Source of the DNA: Mobula hypostoma | Lineage: Eukaryota | Length of the DNA: 64,000 bases | Assembly: GCF_963921235.1 (NCBI RefSeq) | Contig: NC_086107.1 | Location: 105,898,001 to 105,962,000, forward strand | Direction of reading: 5' to 3' | In this document: piece by piece, positions 9,001-36,844 of the stretch | Numbering within the stretch: the stretch's first letter is position 1 | How the letters are laid out: every line of letters begins with the position of its first letter | Program-made: the position numbers and the translations under genes | Notes under the pieces: generated by a model | The model's database searches: none | What the model saw: only the letters and a program-made list of their open reading frames with translations | What the model was told of the DNA's origin: nothing

Positions 9001-12000
9001 GGTTCAGTGTGTGTGTGACCTGTTCCCCCAGTGAGGGTCATTGTGTGTGTGGAACCTATTCCCCCAGTGAGGGTCATTCTGTGTGTGACCTGTTCCCCCA
9101 GTGAGGGTCAGTGTGTGTGTGTGACCTGTTCCCACAGTGAGGGTCAGTGTGCGTGTGACCTGTTCCCACAGTGAGGGTCCGTGTTTGTGTGTGACCTGGT
9201 CACCCAGTGAGGGTCAGTGTGTGTGTGTGTGTGACCTGTTCCCCCAGTGAGGGTCAGTGTGTGTGTGTGTGACCTGTTCCCCCAGTGAGGGTCAGTGTTA
9301 GTGTGACCTGTTCTACCAATGAGGGTCAGTGTGTGTGTGTGTGTGTGACCTGTTCCCCCAGTGAGGGTCAATGTACGTGTTTGACCTGTTCCCCCAGTGA
9401 GGGTCAGTGTGTGTGTTTGTGACCGGTTGCCCAGTGAGGGTCAGTGTGTGTGTTTGACCTGTTCCCCCAGTGAGGGTCAGTGTGTGTGTGTGTGTGACCT
9501 GTTCCCCCAGTGAGGGTCAGTGTGTGTGTCTGACCTGTACCCCCAGTGAGGGTCAGTGTGTGTGTGTGACCTGTTACCCCAGTGAAGGTCAGTGTGTGTG
9601 TGTGACCTGTTCCCCCAGTCAGGGTCAGTGTGTGTGTGTGACCTGTTCCCCCAGTGAGGGTGAGTGTGTGTGTGTGACCTGATCCCCCAGTGAGGGTCAG
9701 TGTGTGTGTGACCTGTTCCCCAGTGAGGGTCATTCTGTGTGTGACCTGTTCCCCCAGTGAGGGTCAGTGTGTGTGTGTGACCTGTTCCCACAGTGAGGGT
9801 CAGTGTGCGTGTGACCTGTTCCCACAGTGAGGGTCAGTGTTTGTGTGTGACCTGGTCACCCAGTGAGGGTCAGTGTGTGTGTGTGTGACCTGTTCCCCCA
9901 GTGAGGGTCAGTGTGTGTGTTTGTGACCGGTTGCCCAGTGAGGGTCAGTGTGTGTGTTTGACCTGTTCCCCCAGTGAGGGTCAGTGTGTGTGTCTGACCT
10001 GTACCCCCAGTGAGGGTCAGTGTGTGTGTGTGACCTGTTACCCCAGTGAGGGTCAGTGTGTGTGTGTGTGACCTGTTCCCCCAGTGAGGGTCAGTGTGTG
10101 TGTGTGTGACCTGTTCCCCCAGTGAGGGTCAGTGTGTGTGTGTGACCTGTTCCCCCAGTGAGGGTCAGTGTGTGTGTGTGACCTGTTCCCCCAGTGAGGG
10201 TCAGTGTGTGAGTGACATGTTACCCCAGTGAGGGTCAGTGTTTGTGTGTGACCTGGTCACCCAGTGAGGGTCAGTGTGTGTGTGTGTGTGACCTGTTCCC
10301 CCAGTGAGGGTCAGTGTTAGTGTGACCTGTTCTACCAATGAGGGTCAGAGTGTGTGAGGGTCCGTACCCCAGTGAGGGTCAGTGTACGTGTTTGCCTGTT
10401 CCCCCAGTGAGGGTCAGTGTGTGTGTTTGTGACCGGTTGCCCAGTGAGGGTCAGTGTGTGTGTTTGACCTGTTCCCCCGGTGAGGGTCAGTGTGTGTGTG
10501 TGTGTGTGACCTGTTCCCCCAGTGAGGGTCAGTGTGTGTGTGTGACCTGTCACCCCAGTGAGGGTCAGTGTGTGTGTGTGTGACCTGTTCCCCCAGTGAG
10601 GGTCAGTGTGTGTGTGTGACCTGTTCCCCCAGTGAGGCTCAGTGTACATGTTAGACCTGTTCCCCCAGTGAGGGTCAGTGTGTGTGTGTGACCTGTTCCC
10701 CCAGTGAGGGTCAGTGTGTGTGTGACCTGTTCCCCCAGTGAGGGTCAGTGTGTGTGTGACCTGTTCCCCCAGTGAGGGTCAGTGTGTGTGAGTGACCGTC
10801 CCCCAGTGAGGGTCAGTGTGTGTGTTTGACCTGTTCCCCCAGTGAGGGTCAGTGTGTGTGTGTGTGTGTGACCTGTTCCCCCAGTGAGGGTCAGTGTGTG
10901 TGTCTGACCTGTACCCCCAGTGAGGGTCAGTGTGTGTGTGTGACCTGTTACCCCAGTGAGGGTCAGTGTGTGTGTGTGACCTGTTCCCCCAGTGAGGGTC
11001 AGTGTGTGTGTGGAACCTATTCCCCCAGTGAGGGTCAGTGTGTGTGTGACCTGTTTCCCCAGTGAGGGTCATTCTGTGTGTGACCTGTTCCCCCAGTGAG
11101 GGTCAGTGTGTGTGTGTGACCTGTTCCCACAGTGAGGGTCAGTGTGCGTGTGACCTGTTCCCACAGTGAGGGTCAGTGTTTGTGTGTGACCTGGTCACCC
11201 AGTGAGGGTCAGTGTGTGTGTGTGTGACCTGTTCCCCCAGTGAGGGTCAGTGTGTGTGTTTGTGACCGGTTGCCCAGTGAGGGTCAGTGTGTGTGTTTGA
11301 CCTGTTCCCCCAGTGAGGGTCAGTGTGTGTGTGTGTGTGACCTGTTCCCCCAGTGAGGGTCAGTGTGTGTGTCTGACCTGTACCCCCAGTGAGGGTCAGT
11401 GTGTGTGTGTGACCTGTTACCCCAGTGAGGGTCAGTGTGTGTGTGTGTGACCTGTTCCCCCAGTGAGGGTCAGTGTGTGTGTGTGTGACCTGTTCCCCCA
11501 GTGAGGGTCAGTGTGTGTGTGTGACCTGTTCCCCCAGTGAGGGTCAGTGTGTGTGTGTGACCTGTTCCCCCAGTGAGGGTCAGTGTGTGTGTGACCTGTT
11601 CCCCCAGTGAGGGTCAGTGTGTGTGTGACCTGTTCCCCTAGTGAGGGTCAGTGTTTGTGTGTGACCTGTTCCCCCAGTGAGGGTCAGTGTTAGTGTGACC
11701 TGTTCCCCCAGTGAGGGTCAGTGTGTGTGTGACCTTTTCCCAGAGTGAGGGTCAGTGTGTGTGTGGGACCTATTCCCCCAGTGAGGGTCAGTGTGTGTGT
11801 GACCTGTTCCCCCAGTGAGGGTCAGTGTGTGTGTGTGACCTGTTCCCCCAGTGAGGGTCAGTGTGTGAGTGTGACCTGTTCCCCCAGTGAGGGTCAGTGT
11901 GTGTGTGACCTGTTCCCCCAGTGAGGGTCAGTGTGTGTGTGTGACCTGTTCCCCCAGTGAGGGTCAGTGTGTGTGTGTGACCTGTTCCCCCAGTGAGGGT

Positions 12001-15000
12001 CAGTGTGTGTGTGTGACCTGTTCCCCCAGTGAGGGTCAGTGTGTGTGTGACCTGTTCCCCCAGTGAGGGTCAGTGTGTGTGTGTGACCTGTTCCCCCAGT
12101 GAGGGTCTGTGTGTGTGTGTGACCTGTTCCCCCAGTGAGGGTCAGTGTGTGTGTGTGACCTGTTCCCCCAGTGAGGGTCAATGTGTGTGTGTGTGACCTG
12201 TTCCCCCAGTGAGTGTCAGTGTGTGTGTGTGACCTGTTCCCCCAGTGAGGGTCAGTGTGTGTGTGGGTCCTGTTCCCTCAGTGAGGGTCAGTGTGTGTGT
12301 GACCTGTTCCCCCAGTGAGGGTCAGTGTGTCTGTGACCTGTTCCCCCAGTGAGGGTCAGTGTGTGTGTGACCTATCCCCCAGTGAGGGTCAGTGTGTGTG
12401 TGTGACCTGTTCCCCCAGTGAGGGTCAGTGTGTGTGTGTGACCTGTTCCCCCAGTGAGGGTCAGTGTGTGTGTGTGACCTGTTCCCCCAGTGAGGGTCAG
12501 TGTTAGTCAGACCTGTTACCCCAGTGAGGGTCAGTGTGTGTGTGTGACCTGTTCCCCCAGTGAGGGTCAGTGTGTGTGTGTGACCTGTTCCCCCAGTGAG
12601 GGTCAGTGTGTGTGTGACCTGTTACCCCAGTGAGGGTCAGTGTGTGTGTGTGTGACCTGTTCCCTCAGTGAGGGTCAGTGTGTGTGTGACCTGTTACCCC
12701 AGTGAGGGTCAATGTGTGTGTGTGTGACCTGTTCCCCCAGTGAGAGTCAGTGTGTGTGTGTGACCTGTTCCCCCAGTGAGGGTCAGTGTGTGAGTATGAC
12801 CTGTTCCCCCAGTGAGGGTCATTGTGTGTTTGGGACCTATTCCCCCAGTGAGGGTCAGTGTGTGTGTGACCTGTTCCCCGAGTGAGGGTCATTGTGTGTG
12901 TGACCTGTTCCCCCAGTGAGGGTCAGTGTGTGTGTGTTACCTGTTCCCCCAGTGAGGGTCAGTGTGTGTGTGTGTGACCTGTTCCCCCAGTGAGGGTCAG
13001 TGTGTGTGTGTGACCTGTTCCCCCAGTGAGGGTCAGTGTGTGTGTGTGTGACCTGTTCCCCCAGTGAGGGTCAGTGTGTGTGTGTGTGACCTGTTCCCCC
13101 AGTGAGGGTCAGTGTGTGTGTGTGACCTGTTCCCCCAGTGAGGGTCAGTGTGTGTGTGTGTGACCTGTTACCCCAGTGAGGGTCAGTGTGTGTGTGTGAC
13201 CTGTTACCCCAGTGAGGGTCACTGTTAGTGTGACCTGTTCTACCAATGACAGTCAGTGTGTGTGAGGGACCGTCCCCCAGTGAGGGTCAGTGTGTGTGTT
13301 TGACCTGTTCCCCCAGTGAGGGTCAGTGTGTGGATGTGACTTGTTACCCCAGTGAGGGTCAGTGTGTGTGTGTGACCTGTTCCCACAGTGAGGGTCAGTG
13401 TGCGTGTGACCTGTTCCCCCAGTGAGGGTCAGTGTGTGTGTGTGACCTGTTCCCACAGTGAGGGTCAGTGTGCGTGTGACCTGTTCCCACAGTGAGGGTC
13501 AGTGTGTGTGTGACCTGTTCCCCCAGTGAGGGTCAGTGTGTGTGTGTGACCTGTTCCCACAGTGAGGGTCAGTGTGCGTGTGACCTGTTCCCACAGTGAG
13601 GGTCAGTGTGTGTGTGACCTGTTCCCCCAGTGAGGGTCAGTGTGTGTGTGACCTGTTCCCCCAGTGAGGGTCAGTGTGTGTGTGACCTGTTCCCCCAGTG
13701 AGGGTCAGTGTGTGTGTGACCTGTTCCCCCAGTGAGGGTCAGTGTGTGTGTGGGACCTGTTCCCCCAGTGAGGGTCAGTGTGTGTGTGACCTGTTCCCCC
13801 AGTGAGGGTCAGTGTGTGTGTGTGACCTGTTCCCCCAGTGAGGGTCAGTGTGTCTGTGACCTGTTCTCCCAGCGAGAGTCAGTGTGTGTGTGACCTGATC
13901 CCCCAGTAAGTATCAGTGTGCATGTGTGACCTGTTACCCCAGTGAGGGTCAGTGTGTGTGTGTGTGACCTGTTCCCCCAGTGAGGGTCAGTGTGTGTGTG
14001 TGTGACCTGTTCCCCCAGTGAGGGTCAGTGTGTGTGTGACCTGTTCCCCCAGTGAGGGTCAGTGTGTGTGTGTGACCTGTTCCCCCAGTGAGGGTCAGTG
14101 TGTGTGTGTGACCTGTTCCCCCAGTGAGGGTCAGTGTGTGTGTGTGACCTGTTCCCCCAGTGAGGGTCAATGTGTGTGTGTGTGACCTGTTCCCCCAGTG
14201 AGGGTCAGTGTGTGTGTGTGACCTGTTCCCCCAGTGAGGGTCAGTGTGTGTGTGGGTCCTGTTCCCCCAGTGAGGGTCAGTGTGTGTGTGACCTGTCCCC
14301 CAGTGAGGGTCAGTGTGTGTGTGTGTGACCTGTTCCCCCAGTGAGGGTCAGTGTGTGTGTGACCTGTTCCCCCAGTGAGGGTCAGTGTGTGTGTGGGACC
14401 TGTTCCCCCAGTGAGGGTCAGTGTGTGTGTGTGACCTGTTCCCCCAGTGAGGGTCAGTGTGTGTGTGTGACCTGTTCCCCCAGTGAGGGTCAGTGTGTGT
14501 GTGTGTGACCTGTTCCCCCAGTGAGGGTCAGTGTGTGTGTGACCTGTTCCCCCAGTGAGGGTCAGTGTGTGTGTGTGACCTGTTCCCCCAGTGAGGGTCA
14601 GTGTGTGTGTGTGTGACCTGTTCCCCCAGTGAGGGTCAGTGTGTGTGTGTGTGTCCTGTTCCCCCAGTGAGGGTCAGTGTGTGTGTGTGTGTGTGTGTGA
14701 CCTGTCCCCCAGTGAGGGTCAGTGTGTGTGTGTGACCTGTTCCCCCAGTGAGGGTCAGTGTGTGTGTGTGACCTGTTCCCCCAGTGAGGGTCAGTGTGTG
14801 TGTGGGACCTGTTCCCCCAGTGAGGGTCAGTGTGTGTGTGTGACCTGTTCCCCCAGTGAGGGTCAGTGTGTGTGTGACCTGTTCCCCCAGTGAGGGTCAG
14901 TGTGTGTGTGTGACCTGTTCCCCCAGTGAGGGTCAGTGTGTGTGTGTGACCTGTTCCCCCAGTGAGGGTCAGTGTGTGTGTGTGACCTGTTCCCCCAGTG

Positions 15001-15376
15001 AGGGTCAGTGTGTGTGTGTGTGACCTGTTCCCCCAGTGAGGGTCAGTGTGTGTGTGTGTGTCCTGTTCCCCCAGTGAGGGTCAGTGTGTGTGTGTGACCT
15101 GTTCCCCCAGTGAGGGTCAGTGTGTGTGTGTGTGACCTGTTCCCCCAGTGAGGGTCAGTGTGTGTGTGTGACCTGTTCCCCCAGTGAGAGTCAGTGTGTG
15201 TGTGACCTGTTCCCCCAGTGAGGGTCAGTGTGTGTGTGTGGGTCCTGTTCCCCCAGTGAGTTTCAGTGGGTGTGTGACCTGTTCCTCCAGTGAGGGTCTG
15301 TGTGTGTGTGGGACCTGTTCCCCCAGTGAGAGTCAGTGTGTGTGTGTGACCTGTCCCCCAGTGAGTGTTTGTGTGT
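1..15376. repeat. Tandem satellite: about 24-bp core GACCTGTTCCCCCAGTGAGGGTCA separated by variable (GT)n, monomer about 34-46 bp, roughly 400 copies; runs off the left edge of the window
   Basis: Directly visible periodicity. All Cys/Val-rich and His/Thr-rich ORFs in 1-15400 are translations of this monomer. Confidence 0.98.
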
Positions 15377-15756
15377 TTCTGGAACCCATCACCCTAGTGT
15401 GAAGCAATACCTGTGGAATCCCTGCACAGCTGTACTCAATGTCTATGGACCTGGCACCCAGGTAGGATTTCAGTATCGCTAGGGCTGTACCCCAGTGATA
15501 TTAAGAGTGTGGGAGTCCTGTATCCCAATGGACATCAGTGATTGTAGTCCGATTCCCATCTGTAATTGGGTACCTCTGGAACCCATACCAAGTGAGACAC
15601 AGGTTTTATGTAACCCATTTTCCTGGGGAAGTACTATTTATGTTCTACTGATAGGTGATCAACAAATTAACATAGTTTTCAATGTACCTGATTTGTACAT
15701 CACATTAAACATGCGTAATGATGAAATCAAAGTAGTAAACAGAAAATATTACTCAC

Positions 15757-16813
15757 CCTGAATTACTACTGTCACTGGAATCACTAGAATCATTAGATTC
15801 ACTGTTTTCACTGGAGTCATTGGATCCATTTGAGTCATCTGAATCATTAGAGTCATTGGAATCACTGGAGGCACTGGAATCTTGGGAGCCACTGCTTTCA
15901 TTGGAGTTACTGGAATCGCTTGAGTCACCAGAATCACTTGAACCTTTTCCTCCACTGGAGTCATTGTTATCATCAGAGTCATTTGAGTCACTGGAATCAT
16001 TGGAGTCTCCAGAATCACTGCTATCTGCAGAATCATTAGAGTCACTGCTGTCACCAGCAACTCCAGAATCACTGCCGTCACTGGAATCATCTGAATCACT
16101 GCCATCACTGGAATCATTAGAATCACTGCTGTCACCAGAGTCATCGGAATCACTGTTATCACTGGAGTCATCAGAATCACTGCCATCACTGGAGTCATCA
16201 GAATCACTGCCATCACTGGAGTCATCAGAATCGCTGCTGTCACTGGAGTCATCGGAATCACTGCCATCACTGGAGTCATCGGAATCACTGCTGTCACTGG
16301 AGTCACCTGAATTGCTGCTGTCACTGGAGTCATCAGAATCGCTGCTGTCACTGGAGTCACCTGAATCGCTGCTGTCACTGGAGTCATTGGAATCGCTGCT
16401 GTCACTGGAGTCACCTGAATCGCTGCTGTCACTGGAGTCATCAGAGTCACTGCTATCACTGGAGTCATCAGAGTCACTGCTATCACTGGAGTCATCGGAA
16501 TCACTGCTGTCATTGGAGTCATCAGAGTCACTACTATCACTGGAGTCATCGGAATCACTGCTGTCACTGGAGTCATCGGAATCACTGCTGTCATTGGAGT
16601 CATCGGAATCACTGCTGTCACTGGAGTCATCAGAATCACTGCTGCCACTGGAGCCATCAGAATCACTGCTATCGCTAGAGTCACTGCTGTCACTGGAGTC
16701 ATCGGAATCACTGCTATCACCAGAGTCACTGGAGTCACTGCTATCACTGGAATCACTGCTATCACTGGAATCACTGCTATCGCTGGAATCACTAGAATCT
16801 CCCTCTCCAGTCC
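15757..16813 (-). CDS. Exon 4 of a secreted Asp/Ser-rich (phosphophoryn/DSPP-like) protein, about 352 aa, mostly (SSDSSDSDD)n from a 27-bp unit
   Basis: Minus-strand acceptor ttttgttattttgtattccAG|GG ACT GGA GAG (phase 1, matches exon 3). Open frame [11 protein letters not shown]...SSNSG with synonymous variation between units. Ends at TCA GG|GTGAGT (phase-2 donor), or reads on to TGA at 15753-15755. Confidence 0.9.
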
Positions 16814-17600
16814 CTGGAATACAAAATAACAAAATTTAGGTTCAATTTATGAATAAGCCGTTTTGCACAGCTGACATAACAGTGGCATTAAATATGTTTG
16901 ATCTCATGGAGCATACAGGAATTACATGTGACCTTTGAATCGTCTGTCCAGTGGTGGTTCACCTTCCTGATTGTCATCATCGATCCAGTCAGGGCCCAGA
17001 AGTTCATGGCCACATTTGTTGCCAGGCACTGCCACGGAGCGTTAATGGCACCAGCACATAATGCAGCAAATCCTGTCATCGTCAATCTCCAGTGCAGCAA
17101 GGTATCACTCGCTGCAGCGTCCAGTGCAACAGAGCATCGCACGTCACAGCAGGCAGCACGACAGAGCATGGAAGCCACCCGCAGTCCTGGACCAGAGTCA
17201 TTAACCATGCCTCTCTCCCCCCAGCAAGTGACTGAATGTTTCCAGCATGTCAGCATGGAACATAGAACATGAAAGCACAGGACAGGCCCTTCGGTCCATG
17301 ATGTTGTGCCAGCCTTTTAACCTACTCCAAGGTCAACCTTACACTTCCCTCCTGCATCGCCCAAAGCTCTCCATTTGCCTTTCATCTCTGTGTCTACCTA
17401 GAAGTCTCTCAAATGTCCCTAACGTATCTGCCTCTACTGCCCTCCCTGGCAGTGTGCTCCCAGCACCCACCACTCCCTTACCTCTGACATCCCTTCGATC
17501 ACAGCTGACTTATTTTCCCCCACAACCCCGTCCTCCTGTCTTCTCTCCATAACCTTTGACACACTTACTAATTGTGAATCCATCAACCTCCGCTTTAAAC

Positions 17601-17915
17601 ATAGATAGATAGATAGATAGATAGACATACTTTATTGATACCGAGGGAAATTGAGTTTCATTACAGTTGCACCAACCAAGAATAGAGTGTAAATATAGCA
17701 ATATAAAACCATAAATAATTAAATAATAATATGTAAATTATGCCAGATGGAAATAAGTCCAGGACCAGCCTATTGGCTCAGGGTGTCTGACCCTCCAAGG
17801 GAGGAGTTGTAAAGTTTGATGGCCACAGGCAGGAATGACTTCCTATGACGCTCTGTGTTGCATCTCGGTGGAATGAGTCTCTGGCTGAATGTACTCCCGT
17901 GCCCAACCAGTACAT
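17601..17915 (-). mobile_element. 3' end of a Rex1/Babar-type LINE with (TATC)n tail
   Basis: Encodes ...IPPRCNTERHRKSFLPVAIKLYNSS. A related copy is split at 25905-25985 and 26452-26595. Confidence 0.65.
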
Positions 17916-18734
17916 ACCCAGTGACTTGGCCTCCACAACTGTCTGTGACAAAGAATTCCTCAGATTCACCACCCTCTGACTGAAGAAATCCCTCCTCATT
18001 TACTTTTTGGCTGGTTTGACACAGCATTATGAGCCAAGGGGCCTGTTTCTGTGCTGTACTGTTCCATGTTCTATGAGATACCCTCAAGGTCCCAATTATC
18101 CTTCCTGATGACCATTCTGAGTATTCAGGATGTCAGCAGCAGAAAAACTGGAGCAGCTGTTAGAGCCATTGCTTCAGAGCTCCAGAGACACGGGTTCAAT
18201 CCTGACCACAGGATCTGTTCGTGCGGAGTTTGCGCGTTCTCCCCTGTGACCGGGTGAGTTTGCTCCTACACCTCAAGGTGGTGCGGGTTGGTAGGTTAAT
18301 TGGCCACTGTAACCAGTCTCTAGCGTGAAGGAGAGTGATAGAATCTGCAGCGAGTTGATGGGAAATGGGGAGAATAACAAATTGTTTCACATAGGAGTAT
18401 GTAGAAACAAGTGCTTGATTAATCAGCATGGATTTGATGGGCCGAAGGGCCTGGTCTATGCTGTAGCTAAATTTCTATTCACCAACACATCCTGTGGTTC
18501 TCCATTTGGTCGCTTGGTCCCTCAGGAAACTTATCTCTCTCATGGTGGTCCTTGCCCACATTACTGGCCCTACCTACCCCATCGTTTGACCTTTTGCACC
18601 GGAATGTTTCCCCATTTGGGACAACTCTTCCGGAGAGGTTGAGAATGAGCTACCTCTGGAACTCAGGCCCACTCAGAGTGTAACACGGCGGGAAGTGGCT
18701 GGTGAGACCAGAGGAGAGGAGTCAGGTGACCTAC

Positions 18735-18890
18735 CTCCGTGCCCATCGCCGTATCCCTGTCCTTTCACACTCCCTTCCCAGCCTCCGTGCCAGTGGCCAG
18801 TCCCGACGTCGTACCCATTCCCATTGTAGTCTCCTTTTCCTGCGCCTGTGCCACGTCCATATCCATGTCCAGCCCCGTTCCCGGTGGACT
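18735..18890 (-). CDS. Exon 3 (156 bp, phase 1-1): ESTGNGAGHGYGRGTGAGKGDYNGNGYDVGTGHWHGGWEGSVKGQGYGDGHGG
   Basis: Acceptor cttctatttcAG|AG TCC ACC and donor CAC GGA G|GTAGGT. Length is a multiple of 3 and the frame is open. This frame is not listed in the ORF track. Confidence 0.85.
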
Positions 18891-19200
18891 CTGAAATAGA
18901 AGCGATTCATTGAAATAGGGGAGGAGTGGAAACTGACCGAGCTGCCACGTACGTATATCATGGGCAAAGCGTTGGCCACTGGGAGCTGGATAGAAAGTGT
19001 CTGGAGGATTATGGGACACGTGCAGGCAGATGGGGTGAGCTGACAACCGGCACGGACGGGTCAGGCCGAAAGGCCTGTTGCCATGCTGTAGGACTCCATG
19101 ATTCCAGCTCGCTGGGCTCTGAAATCTCCGCCCCTGGCAAGCATTAGCTGAATCATGAAGCTGCCAACTCACTGTGAGAGAAGAGAGGTTGGACACTCAC

Positions 19201-19401
19201 CACCGCTGTCGTCACCGTGGCTATTGTTATCTCCGCTATCGCTGCTTTCGGCGCTGTATCCATTGCCGTAGCCGTAGCCATTGTCATACCCGTTGCCATA
19301 GCCGTAGCCATTGTCATACCCGTTACCGTAGCCGTAATTACCTCCATCGCTTTCATTACTGTCACTCTCAGCACTGCGCCGTGCCAAAGCATGGCCAAGA
19401 T
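19201..19401 (-). CDS. Exon 2 (201 bp, phase 1-1): HLGHALARRSAESDSNESDGGNYGYGNGYDNGYGYGNGYDNGYGYGNGYSAESSDSGDNNSHGDDSG
   Basis: Acceptor cccttctctctgattccAG|AT CTT GGC and donor AGC GGT G|GTGAGT. Overlaps ORF 19169..19387. Contains a 30-bp internal repeat. Confidence 0.88.
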
Positions 19402-19929
19402 CTGGAATCAGAGAGAAGGGACATTAGGATGGGGAGGGTGGCACACTTGGTATCCATTGAATACCTACGCACCATGTGACTATTCTGCAACGCTGTCACC
19501 GTCAACCAGGCGCTAGTAAATTTCAACCAATCAGTGACGCCATGGCCTGAAGCTCCTCAGTGATTGGTGCAAGCCAATGACTGACAGGGACCTCAATGCC
19601 TGATGGTATTGATATAGGTTTACTGCTGTCACATGTACCTGGGTTCAACGAGAAGCTTGTCTTGCATACTTATCATACCGATCAAATCATTGCACAGTAT
19701 ATCGAGGTAAATCTGGTAAACCGGAGAAAGCACAGTGCAGGTAAACAATAAAATGCAAGATCATAACGAGGAGGATTGTGAGGTCAAGAGTTCACCTTAT
19801 TGTCCATGAGGTCTGTTCAAGAGTCTGTTGGTAAATACGTAAAAAATGATAGCAAGTAGCTTTTCATTCATGATTCCCTGATTTGGCTCTTACATGAGAC
19901 CCATTGAACTGAGAAAAGATAAAGTGCAG

Positions 19930-20200
19930 GGTGAGCCCAGCCTGTCCCTGGGCCACTAGACTGACTGGCTCAGTTGGGGGATCTCCTGGGCCTGGCCTTG
20001 GTGACCATCCAGGGGCCCAGGTGGCAGGCAGTCAAGAACACAGCCTACGCCAGTTGCCTGCCTCACATCTGTGGTTATGTTTGTGCCTGAGTGCCCCTGG
20101 GCAAGGAGCACGTGGTATCCACTGTGACACTGGGGTCTTCCAGGACCAGTGGGCATCACATGGGTTTGAGTCTGGTTTGGATATTGATGAAAGAGTTGTA
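19930..20200 (+). mobile_element. Degenerate Tx1/L1-type LINE ORF2 C-terminal fragment
   Basis: Broken peptide resembling LLGLAKVAI...GYVRARVSLEREHAVST...F.DRWA; recognised from memory only. Confidence 0.35.
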
Positions 20201-20304
20201 ATTTGAAGTTATTAAGCTTTTTTTTTGACTTTTAGGTTGAATGTGGGTTTGAACTTAGCTTTGGATTTGGATTTGAATGTAGCTTTGTAAAAATGTAAGA
20301 CGAT

Positions 20305-20800
20305 AAGACCATAAGATATAGGAGCAGAAATAGGCCATTTGGCCCATCAGGTCTGCTCCACCATTTCATCATGGCTGATCCATTTTCCCTCTCAGCCCCA
20401 ATCTCCTGCCTTCTCCCTGTATCCCTACATGCCCTGACCAATCAAGAATCTGTCAGCCTCTGCCTTAAATATACACAGTGACTTGGCCTCCACAGCCGCC
20501 TGTGGCAACGAATTCCACAGATTCACCACTCTCTGGCTAAGAAATTCGTCCTCATCTCCATTCTAAATGGACATCCCTAATTCTGAGGCTGTGTCTTCTG
20601 GTCTTGGACTTCCCCCACCATAGGAAACATCTTTACTATATCCACTCTATCAAGGCCTTTCAACATTCGATGGATTTCAATGAGATTCCCCCCCCCCTTC
20701 TGAATTCTAATGAAAACAGGCCTAGAGCCATCAAACACTCTTTATATGCCTTTCAATTCCCGGATCATTTTTGTGAACTTCTTTTGAACCTTCTCCAATA
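20305..20800 (-). mobile_element. CR1-type LINE 3' fragment
   Basis: 3' UTR motif (atcagccatgat...gatgggccaaatggcct...ctgctcctatatcttatggtct tail) shared with the CR1 copies at 24140, 44070 and 47100. Confidence 0.7.
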
Positions 20801-23800
20801 ATGACGCCATAATCACAGAATAAACCTCCTTTGGAAAAGGTCAGAAGAAGCAAGTAGCCTAGTCAATCTCAGGTGAACTGACTGGGACCGAGCTCCAGTA
20901 TCGCCTGAAGCCTGCAGTCCATCCGAGAGTAACTCGGGAAGTTCTGTGATGAGAAATGGAAAACGCACAGTAACACACACAAAACGCTGGAGGAACTCAG
21001 CAGGTCAGGCAGTGTCCATGGGGAGGAATAAAGAGTCGACGTTTCAGGCTGAGACCTTTCACCAAGAATGGAAAGAAGAGGAGAAGAATGCAGGATCAGA
21101 AGGCAGGAGAGAAGGGGGGTGAAACTGATGACTTCCTGGCTAAGTTTAGGGACAATGTAAAGATAGGTGGAGGAGTAGATAGTGTTGAGGAAGCAGAGAG
21201 GCTGCAGGAGGACTAGACTAGGAGAATGGACAAGGAGGTGGCAGTGTCAGGAAGTGTATGATCGTGCACTCTGGTAGTAGGAATAAAAGCATAGATTATT
21301 TTCCAAACAGCCAGAACATGACTGGAAGTTAGAGAACTTAATGAAAATGTTGTCAGGTTGGAGGCTAGCCATTCAGAATACCCTCTATTTACCCTTTGGT
21401 TTCCTTCTATAGCTGTCAAACATATTTATTCAAATCTGCCTGAAACCCCAGTCTGTGGAAGAGCTTATTAAGAACGAGAGCCTCTTTCGCCTCTCCCCAG
21501 CTTTTTTTTTATTTTGGCATTTTCCCCCTTCCTTCTCAGTCCTGAAGAAGGGTTTCAGCCCAAAACGTCGACTGTTTTTACTTTTCCACAGACGCTGCCT
21601 GACCTGCGGAGTTCCTCAGTATTTTGCGTGCGTTGCCCAAGAGGTATAGGCGCAAGAGGGGGTAAGGAGTTTTAAAGGCCGTCTGAGGGGGTCAGTTTTT
21701 TTTTTACACAGAGTGGTTGATAGTTGGAACACGCTGAAAGAGGAGGTGGTGGATTCAATTACAGTTATTACATTTGGATAGGATAACAGAATAATAACTG
21801 TTCCTGGATCAGGTGGTGTGGGTCCTGAGGCTCTTTTACTTTATTTGCTGCTGCCATTAGGAACCTCTGTCACAGGAAAGCAGGGACCCCCATTACCCAG
21901 GCTCTGGTCCCTTTCTACTGCTGCCATCAGGAAGAATGTACAGGAGCCTCGGGACTTACATCACCAAGTCCAGGAATAGTTACCACCCCTCAACCATCAG
22001 GCCCTGATCTAGAGGGGGTAACTTCACTCACCCCATCACTGAACTGTTGCCACAACCCATGGACTCACTTTCAAGGACTCTTCATCTCATGTTCTCGATA
22101 TTTAAGGCATCTGTTAGTCTTGCGGGACCATGGATCTGCGCCTGGAAAGTCTTCACTCTCCAAGGCGCAGGCCTGGGCAAGGTTGTATGGAAGACCAGCA
22201 GTTGCCCATGCTGCAAGTCTCCCCTCTCCATGACACCAATGTTGTCCAAGGGAAGGGCAGTAGGACCCATACAGCTTGGCACCAGTGTCGTCGCAGAACA
22301 CTGTGTGATTAAGTGCCTTGCTCAAGGACACAACACGTTGCCTCGGCTGGGGCTCGAATTCACGACCTTCAGGTCGCTAGTCCAATGCCTTAACCACTTG
22401 GCCATGTGCCCAGTCTTGATATTTATTGCTTATTAATTATTTATTTATTATTTTTGCTCCTTGCACAGTTGCTTGTCTTTTGCACATTGGATGTTTGTCC
22501 ATCCCGTTGGGTGCCATCTTTCATTGATTCTATTATGTTTCGTGGACTTACTATGAATGCCCACAAGAAAATGAATCTCAGGGTTGAATATGGTGACGTA
22601 TATGTACTTGGATAATAAATTTACTTCGAACTTTGAACCTAGAATATAAATAGGGAGGGCACAGGTGGATATATCCTAAAGTGAGTAAATGGGCTTTACA
22701 TCAATTGGTGGAAAAGATCAACATGGACACAGTGATCCAAAGGCCAGTTTCTGTGCTCTACAGTTCTATATGACAGTGGGTGTCCTTGTAGGCACAACAC
22801 ACCGATATAACATGAACACCACAAGCAGTTCACATGGCTCCCTCTATTGCAAGAGGGTTGGAATTCTTAGGAAAGTCTTGCTGTTGTTTTATACATCTCT
22901 GGCGAAATCATTCCCGGTCTAACATAGAACACAGAACAGTACAACACAGCAAGACTGTGCTGACCTTTTAACCTACCCTAAGATCAATCTAACCCTTTCC
23001 TCCCACATAGCCCTCCATTTGTCTCTGATCCACCTAAAAGTCTCATAAATCTCTCTAGTATTTCTGCCTCTACCACTATCCTCAGCATGCATTCCACGCA
23101 CACGTCATTCTCTGTCACAACCACAGATTCGACAGCGCTGTAGATACGGCAATTGCGCTCATGGATATGTACATGTGAGCTAATTATTATTTCATAGTGA
23201 TCGTATTTAACTCCATTCATTCCGTCGTAGTATTTGTCGAGACTTGGACACAGCAACACTTCGCTGCCTGCTTGCATTCCGCCTTGCCTGAGAAATTGGA
23301 CTGTCAAGTCAACTGACTCTGGAAACTCTGAAGCTTCAGTGTCTCTCACTCCGCACTTGGGCCATATCCGAACCCAGTGACAATTCTCTGTGTAAAAAGA
23401 GACTACCTCTGACATCCCTCCCTATACGTTCCTCCAATCACCTTAAAATTATGCCACCTCGTAATAGCCAGATCACAAAGTACTCCAGCAGGTGATTAGG
23501 CTGGGAAGGCTCAGCTCATCATGGGGACCCAACTACCAGATTTGGAAACAATCTTCAACTCTCGAAGACAACAGTGAGCTCGCAACAGTATTAAAGACCC
23601 ATCCCACCCCAGACTCTGTCTGTTCAATCTCCTGTCATCGGGTAAGAGGCACAGAAACATCTTAGCGAAGACAATAAGACTGAAAAACAGCTTCTTTCCA
23701 AGGGCTGTTGTGCAGCTGAGTAATGCCACACCCCGGCTTGCCAATGGCCCCTGTGTGTTATGAACTGTTAAAGTCACTTGCTGCATGTAAACATGGGAAT

Positions 23801-24139
23801 TTTAGCTATTTATTTATTCATTTGTTTGTTTGTTTGCTTGTTTATCTATCTATTTATTTATTCAAGAGCTGAAGGTCATGGGTTAAGGGTGAAAGGTGAA
23901 ATATTTAAGGGGAACATCTTCACTCAGGGGATGGTGAGGTTGTGGAACAAACTGACAGTGGAAGTGGTGGATGCAAGTTCAATTTCAACATTGAAGAGAA
24001 ACTTGGTTAGGTACATGGATGGGGGAGGGGTACGGAGGGATATGGTCCAGGTCCAGGTTGATAGGATGAGGCAGAATAATAGCTCAGCATGGACTAGATG
24101 GGCCAAAGGGTCTACTGTAGTTCCTTATGACTCATCCTT

Positions 24140-24640
24140 AGCCTGTGTTGGCGACTGTCCAGAGGAGATTCAGGAGCATGATCCGGGAATGAAAGGGTTA
24201 ATGCACGAGGCGCGTTTGATGGCTTTGGGCCTGTGGTCAGTGGAGTTTAGAAGAATAAGTGACGACACAATTGAAATAATGAAAGGCCTAGATAGAGTGG
24301 ACGTGGAGAGAATGTTTCCTCTAGTGGGGGAGTCTAGGACCAGAAGGCACAACCTCAGAATGCAAGGATGTCCCTTCAGAACAGACGTGAGGAGGAATTT
24401 CGTTAACTAGAGGGTGTTGTATCTGTACAACTCATTACCACAGTCAGCTGAGGAGGCTTAGTCATTGGGTGTATTCAAAGCGAAGGTTGATAGGATCTTG
24501 ATTGGTAAGGGAATCAAAGGTTATGGGGAGAAGGCTAGAGAATGGGGTTGAGAGGGAAAATAAATCAGCCATGATGGAATGGTGGAGCAGACTCGATGGA
24601 CCGAATGGCCTCGCTCTGCTCCCATGTCTTATGGTCTTAC
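24140..24640 (+). mobile_element. CR1-type LINE 3' fragment
   Basis: Encodes PGMKGLMHEARLMALGLWSVEFRR...KGLDRVDVERMFPLVGESRTR, followed by the CR1 3' UTR. Confidence 0.75.
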
Positions 24641-25985
24641 GGACAAGCCATCCATTTTGGGTCAAATCTGAAATCCTGGTCATCTGAGTGAGGTTTAAAG
24701 GGGATGCTGGTGTGGGTGGAGAGACAGAGGCTTCTGGAATAAATTCCAGAGCTATAGGTCTCCCCAGCTGAAGGCATGGCTGCTGTAGGTCGGAAAGAAT
24801 GATGGAGAGTGCAGAACTAGAGGAGCACGGAGCTCTCAGGAGATTGTAGAGGGTCAACAGTGGTGAAACTAGTCAGACGTGCAGAGTAGCAGAGTTGGAG
24901 GTGATTAAGTCTTGCTGGGAGGAAGGTTAAGAGAAGGAACAGAGACAGGGAGGGTAGCAAGAATTATTCATGTTAAATGTCCATTTCCCTTCTGCTAAGA
25001 AGGGTTGTTCTGATGTGGGCATAAATTGAGAAAGTTTCAAAACTTTCCCGTAGCCGAACTAGTATGTAAACCTCTTTACTGAATCAATAGTGACTCACTA
25101 AATACATCAGTCAGTTCTGTAATGAAGTGCACTCTACAACCTTCCACTGATCCACAAAGGGAATACAGTCTCCAGACCAGCCACAGAGTACACACAAGCC
25201 TTGGTACATACTGGAGAGTGGAATTTCTGACAACTTCCTCTCCACCATCCTTCACCTAGCTCCACCATCCTTCACCTAGCTCCAGTCACTCTCCCAAACG
25301 TCAATTCCCTCTTGCAATCTACTCTCCATCTTCCCTTCTCCCAGTCTCTATCTACCTATCCTTCTGAATTCCATCTGCCCCACTTCCACCCATCTCCCTC
25401 CTTCTCCCAACCTATCTCCTGTCATTCCTATTCTCTCATCCATCCACGTGTTTATTTAGAGATACAGCGTGGAATTGGCCCTTCCGGACCTTTGACCAGC
25501 CACCCCTGAAAACCCTGAATTAACCCTAACCTAATCACGGTACGATTTACAATGACCAATGAACCTACTGGGATAATTTGTACCGTACCCTACAATTTTA
25601 ATTTGGCTCTTTACTTTGTTTATCTATGCGTAATTCTTACTTTCTTAAGTTATTGTGTGTTATGTGTACTATTGTGTTTCACACCCTGCTCTGGAGAAAC
25701 GTTGTCTAGTTTAGGGTTGTACGCCTATACAGTTAAGTGACAGTAAACTTGACTTGACTTTGGACTGCAGGAGGAAACAGGAGCACCTGGAGAAGGACAT
25801 GCAGAGACCTCTTGGAGAAGAAGCTGGAATCGAACTCCAAACTCTGACTACCCAAGCTGTAATAGCGTTGCACTAATCACAACACCACCTCTCCATCCTT
25901 TAGATATATAGATAGACATACTTTATTGATCCTGAGGGAAATTGGGTTTCGTTACAGTTGCATTAACCAAGAATAGAGTATAAAA

Positions 25986-26452
25986 CCTTGCAGAGGGTGG
26001 TTAGGGGAGCAGAGAAGGTTATTGGGGTCTCCCTACCTTCTGTCCAAGACCTCTTTCACAGTCGATGCCTCCAGAAGACACGGTACATCATTAAAGACCC
26101 CTCACACCCTCTCCATGAACTGTTTGTTCTTCTGCCATCAGGCAAACGTTACAGGAGCATCAAAACTAAAACCACAAGGCTACTAAACAGCTTCCTCCCA
26201 CAGGCAGTCAGACTGCTAAATAGCTGCTCTACCTGACTCTGCTTTGGACACTTTTAACTTGCACTGGACACTTATAACTGATTTTAACTGACATGTGGCT
26301 GTTGTGTTTTACTATTTATCGTTATGTTTATTATTTAGTGTTGCATTTGTTATGTTATGATTGCACTGCCCCTGAGAAACGCTGTCTCATTCTGCCCCGC
26401 AGAGCTGATGTACGGTCAGAATGACAATAAAGTTTTTTGATTTGATTTGATT
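25986..26452 (+). mobile_element. Rex1/Babar-type LINE 3' end nested in an older element
   Basis: ORF QRVVRGAEKVIG...IIKDPSHPLHELFVLLPSGKRYRSIKTKTTRLLNSFLPQAVRLLN, then AATAAA and a (TTTGA)n tail. Confidence 0.75.
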
Positions 26453-28319
26453 AAATATAGCAATATAAAACCATAAATAATTAAATAATAGCATGTAAGT
26501 TATGCCAGATGAAAATAAGTCCAGGACCAGCCTATTGGTTCAGAGTGGGAGGAGTCGTAAAGTTTGATGGCCACAGGCAGGAATGACTTCCTATCCTTCT
26601 TTCCCTCTATTCACTCCTCTCCCAATCTATCTATTTCTTCTGATCGCCAATCTCTGTCCCTTTCTTTTCTGATTCACATATATTCCCTCTACTGATCTTC
26701 ATCCGTCCTATCCCATAATTATTCTCCATTCCTGCTCCTCTTTGCTGTCCACCTGGAAAGCGGGAAGGGCTAGAACTGGCCATGGTGAACTTTGCGAATA
26801 AATAGCCCACCCAAATGCCCCATCTGGAGCGCCACACACTCAGAAAGTAATGGTTCCTGAAGGTCTCCCTTACTGGGCGAGCTGACTTCGAATAAGAATT
26901 GGTGTCTTTCAGGAAGAGTGTGGGAATAAGAATCAAAATCAGGTTTAATATCACTGTAAGATTGTAGCTTTGTGGCAGCAGTACAGTGCAATACATTTTA
27001 AAAAAGCTATAAATTACAATTTAAAATATGTGTTTATAAAATTTAAATTAAATAAGTATTACAAAAAGAGAACGACGTAATGCTTGGGCATTGGTCCATT
27101 GTCCATTCAGAAGCTTGACGGCAGAGGGGAAGAGGCTGTTCCTAAAGCTTTGTGTGTGTATGTTCAGGGTCCTGTACGTGCATCCTGATGGTAGTAATAA
27201 GAGGAGGGCGTACTCTGGGTGATGGGAGTCCTTAATAATGGTTGCCACCTTTTTTGAGACATTGCCTTTTGAAGATGTCCCCGATACTGGGGAGGATAGT
27301 GCCCATGATGGAAATAGGATTGGGGATTTTTTTTTTAAATATCCCAGGAAGTCCATGGAGTGTGTTGTGCTAACTTGGAGATGGAACGCCGGGATAATGT
27401 GGACTCACTGGACAAGGTCTTTCGGGCTGTTGTTGAGCACAGACTCTCTTAGCTTTCTCCAACAAAGAGTGGGCCTGTTTATTGACAAACGCCAACTTAC
27501 TTTGGACTCCAAATGGAACTGTAATCCTCATTGAATATACCTACTCAACACACGGCTAGATGCTATTGAGCTTTTCTTGGGTATAATGTGAACTTCGTCC
27601 CAAATGCCAGTCTCACATATTGGTCAAATGGAAACTGGGAATGAGTACTGGCATTGGTCCAGGAACCTTTTTCTTCCCTCAGGCGTTAAACCGTAAGGTA
27701 TAGGAGCAAACTGAGGCCATTCAGCCCATTGAGCCTGCTTCACCATTTGACCATGGCTGATTTATTATCCCCCTCAACCCCGTTCTCCTGCCTTCTCTCT
27801 GCAACCTTTGACGCCCTGACTGACGAAGAAGCTGTCAATCTCTGCTTTAAATATACCCACTGGCTTGGCTGTCTGCAGCAAGGAATTCCACAGTTTCCCC
27901 ACTCTCTAGCTAAAGAAATTCCTTCTCATCTCTTGCCAAAAAAACAGAACCACAGTACGGACCTCTTGGCCAACGACGTTGTGCTGACCTCTTAACCTAT
28001 TTCAAGATCAATCCAACCCTTTCCTCCCACGTAACCTTCCACTTTTCTTTCACCGTGTGTCTATCTAATGTCCCTAATGTGTCTGCCTCTACCACTACCC
28101 CTGGCAGCTCAATCCATGCACCTAGCACTCTCTGTTTCCCAAACCTATCTCTGACATCCCTCTAGACTTTCCTCTAATCACCTTAATAGTATGTCCTCTA
28201 GTATTGGCCATTAACAAACTGGGTAAAAGTCACTGCCTGTCCACTCTGTCTCTACCTCTTATCATAAAAATTAGGCTTTTAGCAGCAGTAGCCCAGTATT
28301 TTATAGAAATGACAAACCT

Positions 28320-28823
28320 CCTGTAGCTAATAAATTGGGCACTGAGTGTATGTTTATGGTCCTCTGCTGCCGTCGCTCATCTGTTTAAAGGTTCGACATG
28401 TTGTGCGTTCAGAGATGCTCTTCTGCACACCACTGTTGTAACGTGTGGTTATCTGAGTTACTGTCACCAGTCTGGCCATTCTCCTCTGACCTCGCCCCCA
28501 AAATTGCCACTCAGTGAATGTTTTTTTTGTTTTTCCCACCATTCTCTGTAAACTCTAGAGACAGTTGTGCATGAAAATCCCAAGATATCAGCAGCTTCTG
28601 AGATACGCAAACCACCCCATCTGGCACCAACAATCATTCCATGGTCAAAGTCACTTGGATCACATTTCTTCCCCATTCTGATGATTGGTCTGAACAACAA
28701 CTGAACCTCTTGACCGTGTCTGCATGCTTTTATGCATTGAGTTGCTGCCACATGATTGGCTGATTAGATGTTTGCATTAACAAGCAGGTGTACAGGTGTA
28801 CCTATTAAGGAGGCCACTGAGTG
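28320..28823 (-). mobile_element. Tc1-like non-autonomous element
   Basis: TIR CACTCAGTGGCC...; encodes a Tc1 N-terminal HTH remnant MGKKCDPSDFDHGMIVGARWGGLRISEAADILGFSCTTVSRVYREW. Confidence 0.8.
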
Positions 28824-29153
28824 TAAATGAATACATTTCTACATCCCAAGATGTGCTCCCTTCACCCTGCCACCACCTACAATCCTTTGATTTATCTGTT
28901 GCAGTCCCAAGACCTTAGCCCGGGCTCCACTTTGAGCCGGGGCACAAAGGCCGCAAAAGTTGGCATTCACCCGTCCTCCGACACCTGGCCCGTCCCAAAC
29001 CCACCCAGAGCACTGGCAATGCACAGATGGAGGGCTGCAACAGTGTCCTCCCCGCCCACCACCTCCCGGCACCGGGCGGTAACCCACCAACGGGTCAGGC
29101 TCCGGTCTTGGGGATCCCGGGGACCGGAAGGAATGGTTGTAGGTCGTACTCAC

Positions 29154-29211
29154 GTCTACCGTGGCTCACGGCCAGCAGCCCCAGCAGGGCGACGAACAGC
29201 AAGACCTTCAT
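29154..29211 (-). CDS. Exon 1 coding part: signal peptide MKVLLFVALLGLLAVSHG-R, phase-1 donor
   Basis: AGAAC ATG (A at -3), basic residue 2, hydrophobic core, S-H-G cleavage motif, donor AGA C|GTGAGT, and TATAAAA about 80 bp upstream of the ATG. Phase matches exon 2. Confidence 0.85.
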
Positions 29212-29288
29212 GTTCTTCTGCCTCTATCTCTCCTTTTCTGAGTGGGACACTTGTGTGATCTCTAATGGTGTGGAGCAGAGCTCCCGCC

Positions 29289-29295
29289 TTTTATA
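29289..29295 (-). promoter_or_regulatory. TATA box (TATAAAA) of the Asp/Ser-rich gene; predicted TSS near 29265
   Basis: Minus strand reads gagTATAAAAggcggg. The spacing gives a 5' UTR of about 55 nt with no upstream ATG. Confidence 0.75.
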
Positions 29296-29780: not shown

Positions 29781-30220
29781 CTGAGGGAGTGCCTCACTGT
29801 CAGAGGGACGGTACCGAGAGAGTGCCTCACTGTCAGAGGGACGGTACCGAGGGAGTGCCTCACTGTCAGAGGGACGGTACCGAGGGAGTGTCTCACTGTC
29901 GGAGGGACAGTACCGAGGGAGTGTCACACTGTCGGAGGGACAGTACCGAGGGAGTGTCTCACTGTCGGAGGGACAGTACCGAGGGAGTGTCTCACTGTCG
30001 GAGGGACGGTACCGAGGGAGTGTCTCACTGTCGGAGGGACAGTACTGAGGGAGTGTCTCACTGTCAGAGGGACAGTTTGAAGGAGTGTCACACTGTCAGA
30101 GGGACGGTACTGAGGGAGTGTCTCACTGTCAGAGGGACAGTATTGAGGGAGTGTCACACTGTCAGAAGGACAGTATTGAGGGAGTGTCTCACTGTCAGAG
30201 GGACAGTACTGAGGGAGTGC
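29781..30220 (+). repeat. 33-bp minisatellite (about 13 units) GAGGGAGTGTCTCACTGTCGGAGGGACAGTACC
   Basis: 11-aa periodicity in ORFs (ECLTVGGTVPR); units directly visible. Confidence 0.92.
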
Positions 30221-35934: not shown

Positions 35935-36305
35935 CAGTACTGTGCAAAAGTTTTAGGCACATGTAAAATAAAATTCTGTAAAGCGAAGATGCTTTCAAAA
36001 ATAACGAAATGAGAAGTTTCTAGCTATCAAAAAAATTACTCTAAGAGCAGTAAACAGTAAAAAACTAAATCGAATCAATATTTGGTGTGACCACACTTTG
36101 CCTTTAAAACTGCATCAAGTCTCATAAGCACACTGTCATGCAGTTTAGGAAGAAAATTGGCTGGTAGTTTATTCCAGGCATCTTGGAGGACTGGCTGTGG
36201 TCCTTCGACAGACTTTGGCTGTCTCACTTGCTTTTCTCTTTCCAGGGAGTCCCAGACAGCCTCGATGACGTTGAGATCAGGGTTTTGTGGAGGACATACC
36301 ATCTG
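35935..36305 (-). mobile_element. Tc1-like transposase C-terminal remnant with TIR
   Basis: PPQNPDLNVIEAVWD...LQDAWNKLP...RLDAVLKAKCGHTKY (the SPDLNPIE..W motif) and TA-CAGTACTGTGCAAAAG terminal repeat. Confidence 0.8.
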
Positions 36306-36844
36306 AAACAATATAAAAAAAATAGCGTGCCTAAGATTTTGCTCGGTACCTACGTACCCGCATACGTGTGCACACACACAAGTACATGCACACGCGCGCG
36401 CGTTCACATAGAGAAAGTCTTGAGCTTCCAATCTGTTAACTCCAGTGGAAGCAGAATATCCATCGGGATTACTTTGAAGGTGAGCAGGCAGGGGGGACAT
36501 CACTGGCTCCCAGAGGCTTTAAAACAGAACCACTCCTCCAAGTGTGACAGAAGCCGGGTTTGTCAGCACAACTTTGCAGCAAGCAGAGCTGCATCAGCCT
36601 GGGTTCAATCCCGACCTTGGGCACTGTCCGTTTTGAGCTTTCACGTTCTTCTAGTTTCCGTGAGGGTTTCCTCTGGGTGCTCTGGTACCCCCACCCCCAA
36701 CTTCCCAACGACACGCGGATTGGTAGGTTAACCGACCACTGTAAGTTGCCCCGAGTGTGAAAGAGAGAATCTGGATGAGCTGTTGAGAATGTGGGGGGAT
36801 TAACTGGTAAGTAAATGTGCACACAGTATTGGTATTGGTTTTCA

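Follow-up and report, generated by a model that had tools for sequence, protein, structure and literature searches.

A candidate gene for a secreted phosphophoryn-like Ser/Asp-repeat protein in the ray Mobula hypostoma, with a gene structure unlike that of SCPP genes

The 64-kb stretch of Mobula hypostoma DNA analyzed here (the window) contains what appear to be the first four exons of a gene under selection. Its product, which does not belong to the SCPP family, is predicted to be a secreted polyanion and is likely disordered. With modest confidence, based on analogy, we favor the view that this protein would work on calcium-phosphate mineral in the way of dentin phosphoprotein (DPP, or phosphophoryn, the C-terminal product of mammalian DSPP, a SIBLING/acidic SCPP protein). 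Its site of action is likely to be the matrix of teeth, denticles, or calcified cartilage.

All elements of the gene model lie on the minus strand. A predicted TATA box (positions 29289..29295) is located 84 nt upstream of the ATG at 29211, which has an A at position -3. The coding part of exon 1 (29154..29211; 58 nt, i.e., 19 codons plus 1 nt) ends in a phase-1 GTGAGT donor. Intron 1 (19402..29153; 9752 nt) consists mostly of dispersed repeats and contains no convincing additional exon. Exon 2 (19201..19401; 201 nt) and exon 3 (18735..18890; 156 nt) are both phase 1-1 and both unmasked by self-BLAST. Exon 4 (15753..16813) is a 1061-nt Ser/Asp array, which ends at 15757 if it is spliced and with the stop codon at 15753 if it is not. 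The original prediction that a gene encoding a secreted protein with Ser/Asp repeats is hidden here is upheld: its coordinates, GT-AG ends, and predicted phase-1 junctions were all verified in the sequence. The three predicted introns read as GT-AG and phase 1 and preserve the frame, and the joined exons (1476 nt) encode 491 amino acids plus a stop at 15753, with no frameshift or internal stop. No other host gene was found in the window. Three RNA runs from the same species provided no evidence either way: at the three junctions, their contigs fell mostly on repeats, with zero cover in the bins of exon 1, of exon 3, and of the beginning of exon 4, none of 15 of the 668 RNA joints matched an intron, and exon 4 with its 3' flank had a share of 0.00 in each run.

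The 491-residue model consists of 38% Ser, 27% Asp, and 13% Gly and contains no Cys or Pro; beyond residue 18, there are 142 Asp and Glu residues, 187 Ser residues, and 7 Lys and Arg residues. The product of exon 1 is a predicted signal peptide, with Lys2, a Leu-rich core, and small residues at positions 16 and 18, which would direct the protein into secretion. Exon 2 encodes a short basic stretch with Arg27-Arg28 at its end, a dibasic pair that may serve as a propeptide cleavage site, and a Gly/Tyr/Asn/Asp unit of 10 residues, present in 2.5 copies. Gly makes up 40% of exon 3, which also encodes His, Tyr, and two Trp residues. The Gly/Tyr part might tether the protein to a fibrous matrix. In exon 4 (50% Ser and 35% Asp, without Phe, Arg, or Cys), some 350 residues of Ser/Asp repeats are built from a 27-nt unit that encodes 9 residues with the consensus SDDSSDSSD. 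The whole model includes 57 DSS tripeptides.

The variation among these repeats argues for a functional protein. Among the 24 repeat units, 43 of the 63 changed codons are silently changed, compared to a null mean of 36% (a value not reached in any of 5000 shuffles, the repeat units not being independent), while the other sense frames of exon 4 show silent changes in 4 of 58 and 6 of 50 codons. Both TCN and AGY serine codons occur across the array. Such mostly silent variation indicates that the protein is under selection, and it counts against the very improbable alternative of no functional gene, in which splice-like signals would happen to line up around a minisatellite or the gene would have died recently. 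The intact frame counts against that alternative as well, as do the properties of the individual exons. Of the 843 20-mers in the window that start with ATG and contain no stop, exon 1 alone has a hydrophobic core and an early basic residue together with a TATA box upstream and a donor downstream. Exons 4, 2, and 3, which are in matching phase, are the top three loci for G/S/D/N/Y/H content (1.00, 0.96, and 0.73, with the next at 0.64) among 22863 stop-free 45-residue segments, in an alphabet picked after the exons had been seen. On the other side, two further reading frames of the 27-nt array are open too, and 95% of randomized arrays remain stop-free, so that the openness of the array by itself is weak proof of a gene.

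The lack of a homologue in sequence searches also speaks for the nongene alternative. With single exons as queries, exon 2 had no match among 87 longer candidate proteins, 1.84 billion representative sequences, or PDB sequences; exon 3 matched none of 5 candidates, and residues 250-352 of exon 4 matched none of 7999 scored sequences. Exons 2 to 4 hit no Pfam families. In the ESM Atlas, exon 2 had no usable match and exon 4 gave only bacterial leads below 0.8, the best of which was a clumping-factor-like cluster at 0.79. In a sensitivity control with exon 2, 18 of 20 copies were recovered when their identity was 70%, 3 of 20 when it was 60%, and none of 20 when it was 50%, so distant relatives could escape these searches. 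Searches of the openly accessible literature (subscription papers and genome annotations being outside this scope) found no account of the gene, nor was a match to it found in the 8 supplementary files of PMC13188829.

The four exons of the original prediction stand, but the strong donor at the end of exon 4 means that four is probably the minimum number. The apparent stop codon, TGA at 15755-15753, lies inside G/GTGAGT (the slash marks the splice site), and the predicted phase-2 donor GTGAGT (15751..15756) would end the exon at 15757. Within positions 15401-64000, 16 of 4401 stop triplets fall in G/GTRAGT and 60 of 4401 in GTRAGT. Downstream of this stop, there is neither AATAAA nor ATTAAA, only two CATAAA variants, and the 380 nt past exon 4 contain no convincing terminal exon. 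The overlap of the stop with a strong donor and the lack of AATAAA or ATTAAA suggest that the gene is probably incomplete and that exon 4 is probably not its final exon. There is a good chance that the gene extends past the 36-bp satellite (1..15376; approximately 429 copies, without a unique island), which would then be part of intron 4 if the 15757 donor is used.

Closure of the frame at 15753, with two CATAAA variants downstream, would instead suit an orphan of the starmaker type. This would be an acidic protein, secreted and disordered, either 491 residues long or with an unrelated last exon, that has no tie to the Gla cluster and would steer calcium-carbonate growth in the otoconia of the inner ear, not apatite. 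The lack of a Gla-family motif in the part of the gene within the window is consistent with this unlikely alternative, and Starmaker itself is described as matching DSPP in function, while the similarity between the two is low and their orthology is contested (PMC3250972). Against it stand the absence of a similarity match to any protein in the searches and the position of the stop within a strong donor, an arrangement seldom expected by chance.

A sign of a DPP-like function is the presence of a long DSS-type Ser/Asp array in a predicted secreted protein. As reported in PMC2798077, (DSS)n peptides bind hydroxyapatite even when unphosphorylated, and DPP is a nucleator when immobilized and an inhibitor at high concentration. 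The ray array might similarly bind calcium and apatite, causing nucleation when immobilized and inhibition when abundant. Some of its serines would be phosphorylated by secretory-pathway kinases; by motif rules, chained Fam20C-type priming reaches 8 of the 187 serines and CK2-type rules reach 36, so the motifs do not predict heavy phosphorylation. Ser/Asp arrays are also known in nonmineral proteins, which counts against a mineral function.

The scarcity of S-x-E sites (6 in the whole model, four of them in exon 2, at positions 29, 34, 69, and 85), together with 16 N-x-S/T sequons and 14 Ser-Gly pairs, would fit a nonmineralizing secreted polyanion or glycoprotein, in which the array carries glycans or keeps calcium soluble and the Gly/Tyr part cross-links. 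Settings for such a protein include mucus, sensory-canal jelly, fin fibers, the egg envelope, and uterine fluid. The best ESM Atlas lead, a bacterial Ser-Asp repeat protein, points in the same direction, as does the expression of catshark Mgp2 and Bgp around unmineralized ceratotrichia and in soft connective tissue (PMC8006282). We give this alternative only a minor share of the probability: the 14 N-x-S sequons of exon 4 barely exceed the shuffle mean of 10.0 (p = 0.05), and in DPP, it is this DSS-type unit that binds mineral (PMC2798077).

Under the favored DPP-like reading, the likeness to DSPP is one of composition and not of descent. SCPP/SIBLING genes, whose location is the sparc-L/pkd2 locus, have an untranslated exon 1, followed by an exon 2 that carries the start codon and encodes the signal peptide (PMC4373244, PMC3250972), and phase-0 coding introns with class 0,0 exons (PMC9122587, PMC3632108). 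In the ray gene, the start codon is in exon 1, at the above distance from the TATA box, the three predicted introns are all in phase 1, and the RGD motif of acidic SIBLINGs is absent from the 491 residues. A shared feature is an S-x-E motif in the exon that follows the signal-peptide exon, here at Ser29 and Ser34 of exon 2. Membership in the SCPP family or orthology to DSPP is ruled out by the phase-1 introns, the placement of the ATG in the first exon, and the missing RGD. A weak CAG located 26 nt before the ATG is a caveat to the absence of an untranslated exon 1, and the TATA-based start is a predicted one. The failure of these gene-structure tests indicates that the DSPP likeness is a convergence. 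Thus, the proposed phosphophoryn-like composition is retained and the family tie is not; judging from the different gene structure, the ray Ser/Asp-repeat gene likely arose independently of DSPP.

The exon layout fits another family, and the gene may be an offshoot of the Bgp/Mgp (osteocalcin/matrix Gla) cluster, for which we see a chance slightly short of even. Bgp/Mgp genes have intron phases 1,1,2, with the phase-2 intron before the Gla exon, and the ray gene has phases 1,1,1,(2), the final phase-2 donor being a predicted one; a phase-1 intron after the signal peptide is common. A more specific and rather doubtful version is that the four exons are the unrecognized 5' part of a Bgp/Mgp-family gene, phase-2 spliced to a Gla-type exon past the satellite, i.e., a ray phosphophoryn. 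This gene could possibly be the batoid Mgp2, whose 5' exons were left unreported by a study that extracted only the last exon (PMC8006282). Bgp lies in the Ddx47-Erp27 locus. Mgp1, Mgp2, and Bgp share one scaffold in the catshark; in Mgp genes, the ATG and the signal peptide belong to exon 1, and the Gla domain is encoded by the last exon (PMC8006282). The ray gene shares with this family the ATG and signal peptide in exon 1, which is not a family-specific feature, and the S-x-E sites shortly after it. Acidic Ser/Asp-rich pro-regions have been gained repeatedly in the family, as in catshark Bgp and zebrafish bgp1b, with Oc2 as a further case (PMC3517302). In ungapped comparisons by eye, exon 1 is identical to the Bgp signal regions of elephant shark and catshark in 9 and 8 of 19 positions, respectively, with Arg19 in both, and to three Mgp sequences in 5 to 7 of 19, so the likeness to Bgp does not discriminate. 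Mgp2 has Gly-Tyr tracts at its end, after the Gla core, whereas those of the ray protein come early, and one giant repeat exon takes the place of the micro-exons of Bgp. The carboxylase docking site, the furin motif, and the ExxxExC Gla core are all missing from the four ray exons, the lack of Phe, Arg, and Cys precluding all three in exon 4. A motif search found no docking or furin site elsewhere in the window, and the two stray ExxxExC matches there are in repeat DNA only.

Cartilaginous fishes lack the acidic SCPP cluster, and how they nevertheless mineralize their dentine and cartilage is a question raised in PMC3964593 and partly answered by studies of scpp, spp2, and Mgp/Bgp. The earlier statement that this group has very few such genes is dated, given the published elasmobranch scpp (PMC9122587), the expanded spp2 family (PMC13188829), and Mgp1, Mgp2, and Bgp (PMC8006282). 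If a protein with DSS repeats is encoded by a gene not built like an SCPP gene, this would clearly exemplify convergence on phosphophoryn chemistry. Should the origin from the Gla cluster be true, acidic matrix proteins would have a second source in the Gla-protein locus, alongside sparc-L, and a DSS-repeat mineral protein would have evolved from a second gene family, independently of the SCPP genes. The ray gene offers a specific probe for in situ hybridization and proteomics.

Among the known mineral-associated proteins, Spp2 has a cystatin-type domain with cysteines, and membership in that family is rejected by the absence of Cys from the ray model. Starmaker has a much higher Lys/Glu content than the ray protein, and neither it nor OMM-64 showed similarity to the latter in the searches. 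These two teleost otolith proteins resemble it in being secreted, Ser/Asp-rich, disordered mineral regulators with no clear orthology to DSPP (PMC3250972). The elasmobranch scpp, also from cartilaginous fishes, is similarly secreted and acidic, with a Tyr-rich N-terminal region and S-x-E sites, but has three phase-0 coding introns, PDYxxPxx repeats, and a region alignable to Sparc-L and is located beside sparc-L (PMC9122587); the ray gene has phase-1 introns, and its product contains no proline, no PDYxxPxx repeats, and no region that could be aligned with Sparc-L. Compared with DPP, the ray gene differs in its start codon in exon 1, phase-1 introns, 9-residue repeat unit, and probably nonterminal exon 4, and its product has no sequence match to DPP. 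What it shares with DPP is a signal peptide, a very acidic composition without Cys, and a Gly/Asn/Asp/Ser-rich front followed by a single large exon of DSS-type repeats.

The gene, which would encode a secreted Ser/Asp-repeat protein, lies on the minus strand. The sequence and its splice signals place a TATA box at 29295, the start ATG at 29211, the coding part of exon 1 at 29211-29154, exon 2 at 19401-19201, exon 3 at 18890-18735, and exon 4 at 16813-15753. The TATA box and four exons with GT-AG sites and matching phase 1 were thus recovered as first predicted: all three introns are GT-AG and all three are in phase 1. The exons, joined by coordinates, stay in frame for 1476 nt (491 aa, followed by the stop at 15753). 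The 491-aa model consists largely of Ser (38%), Asp (27%), and Gly (13%), contains 57 DSS tripeptides, 6 S-x-E sites, and 16 N-glycosylation sequons, and has no Cys, Pro, or RGD anywhere along its length. A self-BLAST of the window masks 34798 of the 64000 bases and leaves exons 1 to 3 unmasked. Within exon 2 (region 19375-19380), an Arg27-Arg28 pair immediately precedes the earliest S-x-E site and might mark where a propeptide is cleaved; the pair does not fit the canonical furin motif, R-x-x-R.

The four exons almost certainly belong to a functional gene. Of the 843 stop-free 20-mers in the window that begin with ATG, exon 1 alone combines four features: a TATA box upstream, a basic residue near the start, a hydrophobic core, and a splice donor downstream. 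When 22863 stop-free 45-residue windows are ranked by G/S/D/N/Y/H content, an alphabet chosen post hoc, exon 4 comes first, exon 2 second, and exon 3 third. The openness of exon 4, an array of 27-nt units, is itself little proof, because 95% of randomized arrays remain stop-free and two other frames, one antisense (15739-16839, plus strand) and a second sense frame (15749-16846, minus strand), are open for ~365 codons. In the proposed frame, 43 of the 63 codons that differ from the consensus in 24 units carry silent changes, against a null mean of 36%, and none of 5000 shuffles reached this value; units multiply by duplication, so the shuffle p-value is over-optimistic, and the direction of the silent excess is clear. 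The two other sense frames show 4/58 and 6/50 silent changes, and the single antisense frame in codon register shows 31/50, as expected for the shadow of a coding frame. This pattern marks the other open frames as by-products of the coding frame; the exon-4 repeat protein is under selection. Look-ups of RNA data came back blank and count neither for nor against the gene.

The description as a four-exon gene holds for the exons themselves and probably fails at the 3' end. The stop (15755-15753) falls within G/GTGAGT, a hexamer identical to the donors of introns 1 and 2; in 15401-64000, 60 of 4401 stop triplets lie inside GTRAGT and 16 inside G/GTRAGT. The 15.7 kb downstream of the stop contain no AATAAA or ATTAAA polyadenylation signal, only two copies of CATAAA. 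Exon 4 is probably spliced at 15757 (phase 2) to a fifth exon beyond the window, which would leave the 3' end missing. Past exon 4, ~380 unique bases give way to a 36-bp satellite (1-15376; ~429 copies with strong strand skew) that continues to the window edge without a unique island and runs on beyond it.

Searches of the remainder of the window turned up only remnants of LINEs and transposons. A LINE reverse-transcriptase remnant of 349 codons (59940-60989, plus strand; PF00078, E 3.7e-14) has similar fragments at 55915-56346, 47466-47906, and 23772-24410. Tc1/mariner-like remnants, with HTH_23 and DDE_3 matches under the Pfam cut-offs, are located on the minus strand at 28464-28763, inside intron 1, and at 36075-36518. 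An ORF at 53589-54170 (plus strand) matches ALKBH8_N in Pfam (E 4.4e-11) and is probably a retroelement remnant, not ALKBH8; matches to this family can presumably be repeat-derived. The window also contains one 33-bp minisatellite in two arrays and a 171-bp triplication (29783-30226, 37937-38466, and 51582-52064); ~490 nt separate the first array from the TATA box, which lies downstream of it.

Searches with single exons as queries matched 0/87 longer proteins (exon 2), 0/7999 scored sequences (exon 4, residues 250-352), 0/5 candidates (exon 3), and, with exon 2, none of 1.84 billion representative sequences, all of which were scanned. Pfam gave no family for exons 2 to 4, no chain among the PDB sequences matched exon 2, and the ESM Atlas returned nothing at 0.8 or above for exons 2 and 4. 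Because a control recovered 18/20 copies of exon 2 at 70% identity, 3/20 at 60%, and 0/20 at 50%, close copies seem to be absent from the sequences scored, and diverged orthologues are possible. Some genome database may already carry the gene as an automatic annotation. Searches of the openly readable literature turned up no description of a DSS-repeat gene from a cartilaginous fish. Nor did a search of 8 supplementary files of a catshark cartilage study that excluded transcripts lacking vertebrate similarity (PMC13188829), and the passages available from PMC7814152 and PMC12120383 contain nothing on one. How chondrichthyans mineralize without the SCPP cluster is a question posed in PMC3964593, and the gap has since been narrowed by scpp, spp2, and Gla genes. 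The gene is real and apparently undescribed.

Its product would be an acidic repeat mineral-matrix protein of an otherwise known type. Exon 1 would direct it to secretion, a proteolytic cut might follow Arg27-Arg28, the chain may be partially phosphorylated, and the Ser/Asp array would bind mineral. The composition of the chain after residue 18, with 142 Asp+Glu and 187 Ser against 7 Lys+Arg, suggests a disordered polyanion. Hydroxyapatite is bound by (DSS)n peptides, phosphorylated or not, and more tightly the more repeats they have; dentin phosphoprotein (DPP) nucleates mineral when immobilized and inhibits it at high concentration (PMC2798077). However, motif rules reach few serines of this protein (8/187 Fam20C-type and 36/187 CK2-type), which counts against a simple DPP analogy. 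An otoconial role is unlikely, and so is a role unrelated to mineral.

Genes for matrix Gla protein (Mgp) are found upstream of that for osteocalcin (Bgp), and Bgp/Mgp introns presumably follow the phase order 1, 1, 2, an order that would agree with the phase-2 donor predicted at the end of exon 4. According to the accessible text of Leurs et al. 2021 (PMC8006282), Mgp1, Mgp2, and Bgp share one scaffold with Ddx47 and Erp27; Mgp genes have four exons, the first encoding the signal peptide, as exon 1 is predicted to do here, and the fourth the Gla domain; catshark Bgp is enlarged by acidic repeat exons; and Mgp2 ends in Gly-Tyr tracts. The zebrafish bgp1b pro-region is rich in Ser/Asp (PMC8006282; Oc2, PMC3517302). 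The batoid locus, as described there, has no Mgp1 and yielded only the last exon of Mgp2; in sawfish, ~256 kb separate this exon from the 3' exons of Bgp (PMC8006282). Compared by eye, exon 1 shares 9/19 and 8/19 residues, including Arg19, with two chondrichthyan Bgp signal regions, a weak likeness because three Mgp sequences also share 5 to 7 of 19. Descent from the Bgp/Mgp cluster is a serious possibility, at slightly below even chances, and splicing onto a Gla-type exon is rather doubtful. The four exons contain no carboxylase docking site, furin motif, or Gla core, and the gene was not filed as a Bgp/Mgp family member.

The label "phosphophoryn-like" is apt for the Ser/Asp composition and DSS repeats but does not extend to kinship with the SCPP genes, and membership in that family was rejected. 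In SIBLING genes the first exon is untranslated and the start codon lies in exon 2 (PMC3250972, PMC4373244), whereas here the start codon is already in exon 1; their exons are of class 0,0, in contrast to the phase 1 introns of this gene, and they carry RGD, missing here, along with S-x-E, the only one of these features that this gene shares (PMC3632108). The elasmobranch scpp, which adjoins sparc-L, has PDYxxPxx repeats and three phase-0 coding introns (PMC9122587, in its accessible part), whereas the present gene lacks such repeats and has phase 1 introns. Given these differences in gene structure, the resemblance to DPP is best read as convergence.
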